From Eledone cirrhosa (taxonomy: Eukaryota): 64,000 bases of DNA. Numbering within the stretch: position 1 is the first letter of the stretch; the number at the start of each line of letters is the position of its first letter. The notes below the pieces were generated by a model. The model was not told where the DNA came from. It was given only the letters and a program-made list of their open reading frames with translations, and searched no databases. Below, one piece after another: positions 5,233-43,038 of this stretch. The translations under genes and the position numbers were made by a program. The DNA lies in the NCBI GenBank assembly GCA_964016885.1, contig OZ024743.1, positions 250,666,001-250,730,000 on the forward strand. Direction: 5' to 3'.

Positions 5233-7760
5233 TATTGTTATACTTGGGGAGGGTCATATTTGCGTAATATTGCCAGAATTAATAACAAAACACACTCACT
5301 GTTTGGTTGGTTTTCGCTTCTCGCTGTCTTTTATATCTGCGATCTAACTTACTCGGTCCTCAATGTTGCCATTGACTGACCGACGGTCAAAAATAATACA
5401 GATACAATATAGACACAAACACATATATATAGTTTACATAATTTACATAAATCTTTCGTTGCACATCTGCAACATCGTCAGTGGTGTTATATATATATAT
5501 TTTTTTTTCCTCCTGTTGTGTTGTATGTCTACGCCATTTTTTATTCAGTCTGTCTATATATTTATTTATTTATTTGCTTATTTGTTTATTTTATTTTGTC
5601 TTCTTTGTGCATGCGTTTGCGTGTGTGTATAGTGTTATGTGTGCTGTGTGACTAGTGTGTATAGTGTTGTGTCTGCTGGGTGACTAGTGTGTGTTTATGT
5701 GCTTGTTGTTATCGTGCTTGTGTATGTATTTATTTATCTTATTTTATTTTATTTTATTTTATTTATTTACTTATTTATACTTCTCTTAGGTCAGTGTTGT
5801 TTGTTTGGGTGTTGTTGTTGTTCCACTCATTCTTTCTGTTTAGCTTTGGTCTTCTAATTTCTATTTCACTGGCCTCTCTGATTTGCCTATCTGCTGGGTC
5901 ATTCCTATGTTTAGATATTATTCTAATTTCTATGTTGTCTATGTTACCGTCATATTGTTGTCTAGCATGTTCATATAGTACTGACCCGTTTTTTCGTCCT
6001 TTTAGTTCCCCCCAGTGTTGGTCTATCCTTTCACCTATGCTACGAGCTGTCTCACCTATGTATGTTGTTGTCATGTTTCTGCAAGTACCCTCTGTACATC
6101 TTATGCTATAGACTACGTTTCTAGTTTTACAGTTTATCCGGGGGTTCACCTTACATATAATACATTTCCTATTGGTACAGTGGGTTTTCTTAAAAGGGTA
6201 GGTTTTGCTGATCAGGGATTTTATGGTGGTTCCTGGCTTTTCTACCACCTTTATTTTTAAGTGGGTCTTTCTCAGGGCCTTTCTACACTGGTTAGCTAAT
6301 TTCCCTCCAGGGGTGGCGTCCACAAACATGACACTCTGATATCTCTGGTTGTCGTACCATGATGTGGCCTTCCCTATCTTATGTCTAGCCCTATCTAAGC
6401 TATTCCAGGATTTGCTCCTGTATAGTGGGCAAATACCTTTCATGTCCAGTTCTATGAGTGTCTTATACTTTTCCATGGCTCCTTCGTATACTCTGACTCT
6501 GTCTCTTTGGTTGTAGCCAGAGAACTGCATGCGGTTGATGAAGTGTTGGATGTGTCTTTCCATTTCTGTTGGGTCGCACATGCTGGACACATTCTTCATC
6601 ACTCGGACCAAATCTGCGATCAGAATATTAAACTTAGCACTACTGGACATTGCTGAGTTTTTGAGTATCAGGTATTTGGAGGTATAAATAAGTAAATAAA
6701 TAGTGGTAGAAAAGCCAGGAACCACCATAAAATCCCTGATCAGCAAAACCTACCCTTTTAAGAAAACCCACTGTACCAATAGGAAATGTATCATATGTAA
6801 GGTGAACCCCCGGATAAACTGTAAAACTAGAAACGTAGTCTATAGCATAAGATGTACAGAGGGTACTTGCAGAAACATGACAACAACATACATAGGTGAG
6901 ACAGCTCGTAGCATAGGTGAAAGGATAGACCAACACTGGGGGGAACTAAAAGGACGAAAAAACGGGTCAGTACTATATGAACATGCTAGACAACAATATG
7001 ACGGTAACATAGACAACATAGAAATTAGAATAATATCTAAACATAGGAATGACCCAGCAGATAGGCAAATCAGAGAGGCCAGTGAAATAGAAATTAGCAG
7101 ACCAAAGCTAAACAGAAAGAATGAGTGGAACAACAACAACACCCAAACAAACAACACTGACCTAAGAGAAGTATAAATAAGTAAATAAATAAAATAAAAT
7201 AAAATAAAATAAGATAAATAAATACATACACAAGCACAATAACAACAAGCACATAAACACACACTAGTCACCCAGCAGACACAACACTATACACACTAGT
7301 CACACAGCACACATAACACTATACACACACGCAAACGCATGCACAAAGAAGACAAAATAAAATAAACAAACAAGCAAATAAATAAATAAATATATAGACA
7401 GACTGAATAAAAAATGGCGTAGACATACAACACAACAGGAGGAAAAAAAAAAAAAATATAACACCACTGACGATGTTGCAGATGTGCAACGAAAGATTTA
7501 TGTAAATTATGTAAACTATATATATGTGTTTGTGTCTATATTGTATCTGTATTATTTTTGACCGTCGGTCAGTCAATGGCAACATTGAGGACCGAGTAAG
7601 TTAGATCGCAGATATAAAAGACAGCGAGAAGCGAAAACCAACCAAACAGTGAGTGTGTTCTGTTATTAATTCTGGCAATATTACGCAAATATGACCCTCC
7701 CCAAGTATAACAATATCTGTTTCGACACACGATTTCATATAAAAAACCTCGCTAAACTAA
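5233..7760. mobile_element. Penelope-like element, two 5'-truncated copies back to back (- 5233-6682; + 6703-7760); same family as 26451-32055
   Basis: ORFs 5775..6746(-) and 6703..7176(+) reproduce the C-terminus of the 1210-aa ORF; pLTR at both ends; embedded in (TA)n. Confidence 0.95.
7467..7494 (+). ncRNA. HHR-like core in the PLE pLTR (also 5454-5481 -, 16794-16821 +, 26737-26764 -, 30870-30897 -, 31800-31827 +)
   Basis: CTGACGA-t-GTTGCA(gatg)TGCAAC-GAAA; stems I and III could not be closed convincingly. Confidence 0.5.
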
Positions 7761-7937
7761 TATATATATATATATATATATACATACAGGTACACATACA
7801 TATATGTACGTATCAGTTTAGCGGACGCTTATTATAACGCCCGCTTTGTTCGTTTGTAAACAAACTGAACAGCCTGAATTTATGCCGTACGGTGTTAAGG
7901 CAACCACGTCACCTTTTTGTTCAACACTGACACAGGA

Positions 7938-7980
7938 ACGATGTACAAGTTTCAAGCTTGTTAGCTATCATTAGCACCGT
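7938..7980 (-). ncRNA. Mutated copy of the 8548 HHR
   Basis: Core reads CTAATGA and stem III reads ACTTGT instead of ACTAGT. Confidence 0.7.
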
Positions 7981-8547
7981 ATACCCTTCTGCCAGATGGT
8001 TGAACGTTCGAAAGTATATACTTTCCTTATGAAAATTAACGGCTGAGCAGCCTAATTTGCATATCGAGTGAGTTCGGTCAGGCGTACCGAGTACGATAAG
8101 TTGTAATAAAATGAAAACGAAATTTCATTTCTCACTCTTAGTACGGCACATACTTAAATGTAAGTATGTATGTATACGTACATACATATATGTATACAGA
8201 CGTACAGTAGCATGCATATATATATATATATATATATATATATACATACAGGTACACATACATATATGTACGTATCAGTTTAGCGGACGCTTATTATAAC
8301 GCCTGCTTTGTTCGTTTGTAAACAAACTGAACAGCCTGAATTTATGCCGTACGGTGTTAAGGCAACCACGTCACCTTTTTGTTCAACACTGACACAGGAA
8401 CGATGTACTAGTTTCATTTTATTACAACTTATCGTTCTCGGTACGCCTGACCGAACTCACTCGATATGCAAATTAGGCTGCTCAGCCGTTAATTTTCATA
8501 AGGAAAGTATATACTTTCGAACGTTCAACCATCTGGCAGAAGGGTAT

Positions 8548-8590
8548 ACGGTGCTGATGATAGCTAACAAGCTTGAAACTAGTACATCGT
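8548..8590 (+). ncRNA. Minimal type I hammerhead ribozyme
   Basis: ACGGTG-CTGATGA-tAGCT(aaca)AGCTt-GAAAC(ta)GTA-CATCGT; 6-bp stem I, palindromic stem III ACTAGT, predicted cut after 8584. Confidence 0.85.
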
Positions 8591-40885: not shown

Positions 40886-42028
40886 TAAGAATGGTGGTGT
40901 GTGGGGTAGCTAGCTGGAAGGTTATGATTGTTTAACAAGCGATTAACAAAAAGCAAAAATGCAAGATTTGTTCTGTTCAATACGACAAAAACTACCGTAT
41001 TTAACATAAATAACAAAATAATACAGATTTCGGATTTTGCAAGATTGGATGTTTGGACTAGGTACGAACTTGAAGCGTGGAGTAGATAGAAAAATGTGTA
41101 CGTTACGATTACATGAGGTACACCGTAGTAGGAAACAGCACTGAATTGAAACAGCAATGAAGTGGCGAAAAGTGATTAAACATGAAGGGGAGTTTATCTT
41201 ATATATATATATATGTAGCTAAGAGAGAGAGAGGGTGGGGGAGAGAGAGTGGCTGACCGCAGTCCCTCGTGAAGTAGATGGAGGGTGAAGGGTGCCTGGG
41301 TGCCTGGGTGTAGAAGCGGGATTTGACTTTCGAAGTAGCATAATATATATATTTTAAAGGAATTTATAAGAAGCAGAATGGGAAGGATTTTGTTTTGTTT
41401 TGAGAATACGATAGAATTAAGGAATTAAGGAATTGAGGAATATATATATATATATATATATATATATATACATGTATATACAAATATATATATATATATA
41501 TATATATATATATATATATATATATATATATATATATATCAAGATAAATCAACGGAGCCATAGACTCTCGTTATTCCCTGTAAATTATGTGCTCAAAGGA
41601 AAAGGAAATCTGAGCTCTTTAAAATACAATATGTAGAAAGGGTAACACACTAGAGAGAGAGAGAGGGAGAGGGAGAGAGAGAGAATGAGAGAGAGAGAGA
41701 GAGCGTGTGACATCAATAAAACAGGGAAACCACCAGTGTATGGAATCTATAGCCTATGGAAGGCAGGGTAGACACACAATAATTAAAAATATAAATTAAA
41801 ATGCACATACGCACCTCTATAACTATATAACACACACGTACAAATCCAAAGAGATCTGTTTCGCCAAGAAATTATTGACTGAAATGGAAGCGATTATGGG
41901 TCATCAGCGGGTATAAGACAAATAGATTCCAGACAACTCTAAAAAGATATAAGATAACAGTTCTGCAACACGTGGCAATATATACATATATATACATGTA
42001 TAATACAAATATATATATATATATATAA

Positions 42029-42814
42029 TCATCATCATCATCATTATCACGGTTTTACGTCCGTTCTTCCACGCTAGCATGGGTTAGACGGGTTGTCCTG
42101 TTGTGGGCAGTGTCTGGTCGGCTGACCATGCCTTGCTCATACAGGAACTGATTTGGCTTGATTTCTACAGCTGGATGCCCTTCCTAACACCAACCTCATT
42201 TACAGTGAGTGCTGGGTGCTTTTTCGTGGCGCCTACACGTCCACTTTACAGTGTGGGCTGGGTGCTCTTTTGCCGTGGCACCTCCACGACCACCTTGCGG
42301 TGGGGGGGGGGGGGGGGGGCATATTGTATATATGCTTCAGCTTGTACCCATGGGAGGTCGGGTTCTCTGTATTACTGCGTGACGCCAGAGGTCACGGTCG
42401 TGTGTCATTGCCTTTGAGAGGTGTAATTGGGTAAGGTCGGCTTTTATCACCTCATCCCAAGTCATCTTGGATCTCCCCACTCCGCGGCTTCCATCGACTT
42501 CTAGTGCTCTGCACCTTTTTATGCAGCTGTCATCCTTCATACGCATCACATGTCCATACCAGCGCAACCGCATCTCCTGCACACAGCATTTGATTCCTCT
42601 TATGCTCAGTCTCTCTCTCAATTCATTTATGCTTTGTCGTTCATGTATATTACTGTTACACATCCATCCGAGCATGCAGGCTTCGTTTCTCTCTAATCTA
42701 CATAAGTCTTCCACCTTCAGCGCCCAGGTCTCACTACCATGCAACATCGCTGTTCGGATACACGCATCATACAGTCTGCCTTTCATTCTGAGGGAGAAGC
42801 CTTTTGCAGCTAGC
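42029..42814 (-). mobile_element. RTE LINE 3' fragment
   Basis: [20 protein letters not shown]...RWYGHVMRM; (CAT)n tail. Confidence 0.9.
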
Positions 42815-42895
42815 AAATATATATATGTATATATACATGTATATACAAATGTATATATATATATATATATAGATGTATATACAAATATATATATG

Positions 42896-43038
42896 TTTTG
42901 TGAGGTTTTTGATATGAAATCGTGTGTCGAAACAAATATTGTTATACTTGGCGAAAACCAACCAAACAGTGAGTGTGTTCTGTTATTAATTCTGGCAATA
43001 TTATTACAACAATATGACCCTCCCCAAGTATAACAATA
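42896..43038. mobile_element. Miniature inverted remnant of the main PLE 3' ends
   Basis: About 55 bp of the - sense tail joined to about 90 bp of the + sense tail, inside (TA)n. Confidence 0.8.

Follow-up and report, generated by a model that had tools for sequence, protein, structure and literature searches.

How do inverted pairs of truncated retroelement copies come to lie, 3' ends outward, inside (TA)n microsatellites, and whose proteins put them there? The question is posed by a 64,000-nucleotide stretch of the Eledone cirrhosa genome (assembly GCA_964016885.1, contig OZ024743.1, forward-strand positions 250,666,001 to 250,730,000; hereafter the window), a repeat-dense sequence of 37% GC in which alternating TA runs of at least 8 nt make up 4.9%. 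A preliminary description of the window, made from its letters alone, noted that several families of Penelope-like elements (PLEs) share this insertion signature; it proposed that both ends of a break in (TA)n independently prime reverse transcription, that non-coding repeats with hammerhead ribozyme motifs use the same machinery, and that a candidate intact open reading frame (ORF) encodes the common helper. We favour, at a probability of roughly 0.6, an account in which each end of a break in (TA)n would prime cDNA on sense RNA from the same source copy, the cDNAs then being joined head to head. Some of the non-coding repeats are probably inserted by PLE proteins, though probably not by that helper.

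Seven inverted pairs in (TA)n

Self-BLAST and reading of the sequence bore out all the inverted pairs that had been listed, coordinates included: there are seven, drawn from five repeat families (A to E) and grouped in four clusters, and in all seven the 3' ends face outward. Polarity was taken from the ORF in family A and from hammerhead-like cores in families B to E, a rule calibrated by family A itself, whose core runs in the sense of its ORF. Pair A1 comprises a 5'-truncated left arm (5236..6682, minus strand) and a right arm (6683..7759, plus strand) with a 47-nt 3' tail. In A2 the long minus-strand arm (26452..31687) consists of a 5'-truncated upstream copy, the full ORF and a 3' pseudo-long terminal repeat (pLTR) with tail, its 3' end lying at (TA)16; the short inverted arm (31688..32053, plus strand) is pLTR only and is followed by (TA)33. 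A5 is a miniature pair of 141 nt (42895..43035; about 59 and 83 nt) with its tail on the left arm. The left arm of A1, the short arm of A2 and the right arm of A5 all end at one position, site 1. The family D pair (5140..8889) has a left arm of about 1.5 units, interrupted by A1, and a right arm at 8412-8889; that of family C (17116..21220) has 2.4 tandem 1262-nt units on the minus strand and an inverted plus-strand arm at 20111-21220; that of family B (16376..16676) is hairpin-like, with 100 and 196 nt about a central loop of some 5 nt; and that of family E occupies 15404..16311.

An end was scored as lying at TA if an alternating TA run of at least 8 nt came within 10 nt of it. By this measure 13 of the 14 outer ends lie at (TA)n, against a background of 2.4% of position-sides (binomial p ~1e-20, for loci preselected by the preliminary description); with a minimum run of 20 nt the figures are 10 of 14 and 0.7%. 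The sole outer end without TA is the left end of the E pair, which had been described, correctly, as having (TA)n on one side only, the right. Some TA tracts serve more than one pair: E, B, C and the single arm A4 form one pile-up, from 15404 to 21236, linked by common tracts. Scored by cluster, the association is seven of eight ends (p ~4e-11). A4 (16709..17030, plus strand), from a diverged A subfamily with about 15% substitutions relative to A2, has TA on both sides; like the copy of a further family, G, it has no inverted partner, and the 3' end of each adjoins (TA)n. Inversion is therefore frequent but not obligatory.

Arms, 3' ends and junctions

The arms of a pair are similar but not identical. 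They diverge by 0.9% in A1, 0.5-0.8% in A2, 1.2% in D, 3.0% in E, about 3-4% in C and 4.7% in B, with indels in addition; the comparison of the C right arm with the tandem gives 39 substitutions, a figure that includes about 19 columns of one misaligned indel block (BLAST: 30 mismatches in 966). These differences uphold the reality of the inversions; the PLE identity first assigned to them is supported as well. Among the 22 columns that vary between A1 and A2, 14 are diagnostic of the locus, eight are singletons and none is discordant, and the inverted arm of A2 agrees with A2 at all eight sites that it covers. The absence of discordance at locus-diagnostic sites implies that both arms of a locus derive from one source copy; and arms that differ by 0.5-5% yet carry locus-specific alleles are neither assembly fold-backs nor chance neighbours.

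The 3' ends of family A lie just inside the ORF, whose ATG is at unit position 1023. Four are at 1044 (site 1, where the template continues ATAT), and three at 1089, 1091 and 1103. Each of the three pairs has one arm ending at 1044 and the other at 1089-1103, a one-of-each-kind distribution that would arise with a chance of 1 in 8 at equal odds per arm and is therefore suggestive only, though it agrees with the one-sided tail known from print. In E the arm ends have an offset of 0; D has an offset of 61 nt, C one of about 77 and B one of 96. The TA flank overlaps in phase (AT/TA) by at least 2 nt at 8 of the 12 ends, which become 5 of 9 when only distinct 3' sites are counted (p ~0.03-0.05, post hoc). 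At the central junctions the arms overlap by 0 nt in A2 (a blunt 5'-5' junction), about 1 in A5, 2 in C and 5 in D; A1 has about 20 nt of templated filler, B a hairpin with a 5-nt loop, and the junction of E could not be located. Three of the seven pairs (A1, A5 and D) are non-nested, each arm having sequence outside its partner.

We read the anatomy of the pairs, their TA bias, their same-source arms and their one-sided tails, all of them directly observed, as the products of ordinary insertions by PLE proteins at (TA)n. A PLE protein, probably acting as a dimer, would cut both strands within the tract. One end would prime cDNA synthesis at a fixed internal site on the sense RNA (for family A, an ATAT stretch 22-26 nt from the start of the ORF), and the other would do so 45-60 nt downstream of it, using either the same transcript or a sibling from the same source copy; one RNA and two sibling RNAs fit these arms equally. 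Each cDNA would terminate prematurely or continue around a tandem or circular template, and the two would be joined head to head through 0-5 nt of overlap or a short filler, any target duplications disappearing within (TA)n. Priming from both ends is the likeliest route, given the three non-nested pairs and the in vitro extension of both strands by PAc, the Poseidon element of Anolis, in the experiments of PMC11167929; "independently", as originally proposed, is too strong a word for arms with a common source.

Several observations count against this account. Four of the seven pairs (A2, B, C and E) have one arm wholly included in its partner, and B is a near-perfect hairpin, both as predicted if a single cDNA folded back; trimming of a fold-back intermediate could also yield non-nested arms. 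E shows no tail asymmetry. Weak target microhomology is present here, whereas the start sites of PAc are described as having no target homology (PMC11167929). Seven pairs in four clusters, moreover, are a small sample. Priming from both break ends as an explicit PLE model was not found in a literature search that omitted most subscription papers, which makes this a weak absence.

Fold-back is the best-placed alternative and one that we consider possible, if distinctly on the improbable side. Self-priming is the published explanation of inverted PLE copies, as outlined in PMC3846280: a single target-primed cDNA, or else an antisense template, loops back on itself to be copied, and the intermediate would be trimmed by the endonuclease. 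The same-source arms follow from this directly, as do the 5-nt loop of B and the four nested pairs, but a palindromic junction is found in B only, and the arms of A1, A5 and D each hold sequence absent from the partner, for which extra steps are needed. Because the tail belongs to the longer arm in A2 and to the shorter one in A1 and A5, fold-back has to invoke ad hoc trimming.

A different objection concerns targeting only, and can coexist with priming from both break ends: (TA)n tracts may be generic sites of breakage or insertion, the PLE endonuclease playing no part in their choice. It draws support from LINEs of one family, which carry (CAT)n/(GAT)n tails and which we take to be RTE (9034-10427, 14647-15217, 23685-23723, 33079-34883, 37150-41199, 42028-42816); 13 of their 24 ends, over 12 copies or fragments, lie at TA, and five of the 12 have TA at both. 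Elements also pile up within single tracts, as at 15404-21236. No such bias is found in the two other control families, whose boundaries, like those of the LINEs, were set by the analyst from BLAST: TA adjoins 1 of 26 ends of a presumably SINE-like family of short tandem runs with (ATT)n (1216-1547, 10790-11475, 21071-21180, 24191-24655, 54365-55287), and neither end of an LTR retrotransposon (56514-62190; terminal repeats 99.3% identical, long gag-like and pol ORFs). Furthermore, TA bias is stronger at PLE ends than at LINE ends (Fisher p = 0.027), and the family A protein has a linker of the type tied in print to TA targeting. We consider a generic sink unlikely. The bias is real, stronger for PLEs and not exclusive to them, and the microsatellite targeting initially envisaged is supported, though association with (TA)n is not specific to PLEs here. 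Nothing evident in the literature, as judged from search listings, points to a preference of RTE elements for (TA)n.

That the inversions are assembly fold-backs, the objection that the preliminary description raised against itself, has next to no chance of being correct: TA-rich repeats are hard to assemble, and just 2 of 1262 sites distinguish the two full C units, but substitutions and indels separate the arms in every pair compared, arms end at different template positions, and a SINE-like insert is present in one C arm alone, as A1 is in one D arm alone.

Hammerhead repeats and the helper question

Family D has a closed unit of 462 nt (GC 0.37), its unit junction present in both arms, and is non-coding, the longest ATG-initiated ORF being 44 aa. 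A pattern scan places type I hammerheads at 8554-8584 (plus strand) and 7944-7974 (minus strand). The right arm amounts to one unit plus about 18 nt, starting and ending on the same 18-20 nt, as expected of a circular or tandem template. The unit contains a (TA)n tract of its own (at 5196-5235/7760-7782, 8216-8244 and 8746-8772), which became the target of insertion A1. Family C is probably also a closed non-coding unit: its longest ATG ORF is 80 aa and it has no PLE profile match, with the unit junction visible in the left arm only. Its two nearly identical full units may be a very recent duplication or an assembly product. A hammerhead-like motif near 21000 (plus strand), missed by the pattern scan, was read by eye; the SINE-like piece at 21071-21180 interrupts the inverted arm just after it. 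Family B has type I hammerheads at 16490-16524 (plus) and 16432-16466 (minus) by pattern scan, and family E a hammerhead-like motif with a variant core near 16068 (plus), detected by eye after the scan had missed it as well. B and E, single short insertions that show no tandem junction in the window, may derive from the truncated ends of further autonomous PLEs; at their length such ends and parasites look alike. Neither tblastn with 111 homologs nor a profile search found a PLE coding remnant in B to E. In Rfam (E up to 1), no hammerhead family appears among the 150 of 161 matches listed, which are microsatellite- and hairpin-driven miRNA only, none at gathering score. A strict hammerhead scan match at 765-831 was set aside as a likely chance occurrence.

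Because of their inversion, end offset and TA flanks, D and C were likely inserted by some PLE protein. The earlier idea that non-coding hammerhead repeats run on PLE machinery is likely for D and probably C; B and E might be pieces of autonomous elements. D, and probably C, would be retrozyme-like passengers, most likely inserted by the PLE protein of their own parent family rather than by that of family A.

The proposed helper, the family A ORF (27033..30665, minus strand; ATG at 30665, stop at 27033), is uninterrupted: its 1210 codons contain neither stop nor frameshift, and at columns with 90% conservation or more among the best 89 of 111 homologs it agrees in 100 of 104, the exceptions being positions 485, 665, 794 and 813, none of them catalytic. 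A single change, at position 1188 in a variable column, is private to this copy. The tandem copies of family A are 0.27% apart, and hence young. The best homologs include Octopus vulgaris models at 68% and 74% identity. An N-terminal region with an Asn-rich stretch (codons at 29430-29950; 85 Asn in about 180 residues, where homologs have short variable linkers) is followed by a reverse transcriptase (RT) of telomerase-like type with YVDD, a CX4CxxC linker and, C-terminally, an endonuclease of GIY-YIG type with CCHH. The RT matches Pfam RVT_1 at E 8.8e-5, under the curated cut-off, although a Pfam scan with the whole ORF returns 0 families; a PDB sequence search with the alignment gives one clear match, short and in the RT (E 7.9e-7). 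A predicted model of residues 430-1217, built with 60 sequences, has a pLDDT of 89.8, and its top five Foldseek matches are telomerases, at low TM-scores (0.31-0.35). The endonuclease gives no Pfam match and, modelled from a single sequence, a pLDDT of only 41, but the family A profile matches the Pfam-positive endonuclease of family G at 1.9e-16, and across 89 homologs conservation reaches at least 90% at residues Y1107, C1111, C1116, Y1123, G1125, R1134, H1154, H1159, E1185 and N1197. We accordingly describe it as a predicted GIY-YIG endonuclease with CCHH. The linker, with its short spacing to the next Cys, resembles by eye the Nematis rows of Fig. S2 in the supplement of PMC8557442, and conforms to the CX2-5CxxC pattern of the Nematis/Neptune clade; assignment to Hydra was rejected, since family A carries CCHH, and to Naiad, since the endonuclease is C-terminal rather than N-terminal. 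The pLTR holds a sense-orientation hammerhead core with a 6-bp stem II and GAAA, but a stem I of at least 3 bp was not found. To judge from its sequence, this looks like an intact PLE with a C-terminal endonuclease.

That family A should mobilise B, C, D and E in trans is nevertheless improbable. It is young, shares their insertion signature and has the only full ORF in the window, yet B to E show no similarity to its pLTR or ORF start above that of shuffled sequences: the best case, C against the A pLTR, is matched by 2 of 60 shuffles, the others by 5-55 of 60. Mobility is reported in PMC3846280 to depend on element-specific pLTRs, and the arms of B, C and E are 3-5% diverged, against less than 1% for A. 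Two or three other autonomous PLE families, finally, are present in the window, which tells against the helper as first proposed. Family G is represented by the 3' part of a second autonomous family (22323..23251, plus strand; Pfam GIY-YIG, 3' end at (TA)7), and family H by the endonuclease end of a third (63220..64000, minus strand), which has a CxCX5C, Hydra-like linker and runs off the window. An old ORF remnant at 3972-4412, with no Pfam match and not near TA, is reminiscent of the thumb region of a Hydra-type PLE (compare the Hydra-1_Obim row).

The region around G is chimeric (22040-23251), a piece in common with 37045-37100 being followed by a LINE fragment and then by G, which has a degenerate hammerhead near 23040. 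Family H has a 113-nt tandem in its 3' region and adjoins a TA-rich block at 62855-63218. An unassigned element at 36423-37100 has a TA tract on one side, an (AC)n tract on the other and a 141-nt internal duplication; it may be a further PLE 3' end. A fragment of a Pif1 helicase 2B domain at 3190-3573 is possibly a Helitron remnant.

At 25107-26008 a 59-nt family D end (minus strand) stands back to back with a 5'-truncated LINE (plus strand), with 3-5 nt of overlap; the locus represents a mixed-template pair or, alternatively, insertion of a LINE into the internal TA tract of D with loss of the remaining D. In the former case it could record a bolder scheme, in which the two break ends are primed separately, one at a fixed RNA site and the other downstream, occasionally on different templates, and one PLE protein serves unrelated hammerhead RNAs by virtue of their structure. 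We regard this scheme as doubtful; if true, such loci would let the PLE inversion mechanism be read from genomes and would attest directly to trans-mobilisation of retrozymes.

Comparison with known systems

Nearly everything seen here is known PLE behaviour in new families, and the pattern itself will not surprise a PLE specialist. The accounts of endonuclease-bearing (EN+) PLEs (Penelope/Poseidon, Neptune, Nematis, Hydra) in PMC8557442 and PMC3846280 include partial tandem pLTRs, an inverted 5'-truncated copy and a one-sided tail, all of which are present in family A, with the inverted copy at the 5' end; likewise canonical are a pLTR that covers the first codons, the (TA)n bias and the Asn-rich ORF insert, which has counterparts in the rotifer Penelope ORFs of PMC3846280, a source that also treats pLTR-dependent trans-mobilisation. 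The supplement of PMC8557442 lists four Octopus families with (TA)n preference, and that paper covers Octopus Naiad and Hydra families in (TA)n and advances the linker hypothesis for (TA)n targeting; 31 recently active Penelope-like families are given for O. vulgaris in PMC13282606. Differences from canonical EN+ PLEs lie in the tails (45-96 nt here, against the 30-40 bp quoted for them), in the rarity of junction palindromes (one in seven), and in DKS in place of DKG and a long N-terminus in family A. The 14-nt hammerhead-core strings of A to E are absent from the supplement of PMC8557442.

Closest in biochemistry is PAc, which in the experiments set out in PMC11167929 acts on both strands, cutting and extending them, has been modelled as a dimer and starts at two internal RNA sites that bracket the tail. 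Family A resembles it in having 3' ends inside the ORF start at two tail-bracketing sites, and in its AT-rich target. The start of PAc, however, lies in an AC-rich loop, at +111 to +118; that of family A would lie at ATAT, about +22 to +26, where there is weak TA overlap in phase, and family A has a linker zinc finger besides.

PLEs are named in PMC7229834 as candidate mobilisers of metazoan retrozymes. With the non-LTR retrozymes treated there and in bioRxiv 10.64898/2026.07.22.740005, D and C have in common non-coding tandem units, type I hammerheads, GC below 50% and proposed mobilisation by PLEs, but C, at 1262 nt, falls far outside the unit range of 150-450 bp given in PMC7229834, and D, at 462 nt, lies just above it; and where the known retrozymes form long arrays, D and C are dispersed inverted insertions with tails in (TA)n. 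Pairs of minimal hammerheads on opposite strands, 100-700 bp apart, and the idea of a circular template appear in PMC4209133.

Inverted 5'-truncated copies, one-sided tails, (TA)n preference, in vitro cutting and extension of both strands and retrozymes as PLE parasites are thus already in print, and our additions are modest: arm-by-arm evidence favouring priming from both break ends, and the PLE insertion signature on non-coding D and C, which bears on PLE-driven mobility of retrozymes more directly than do co-occurrence and pLTR phylogeny, and supports it. Tandem and inverted insertion and microsatellite targeting by PLEs are named as an open task in PMC8557442. For that task the window offers a young, intact-looking ORF with a linker of the TA-targeting type, a candidate for insertion and targeting assays. 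A further parallel is L1 twin priming, where both target strands prime cDNA and the result is an inversion with junction microhomology. The two arms of an L1 inversion, however, are non-overlapping parts of one RNA, whereas here both arms carry the same 3' terminus.

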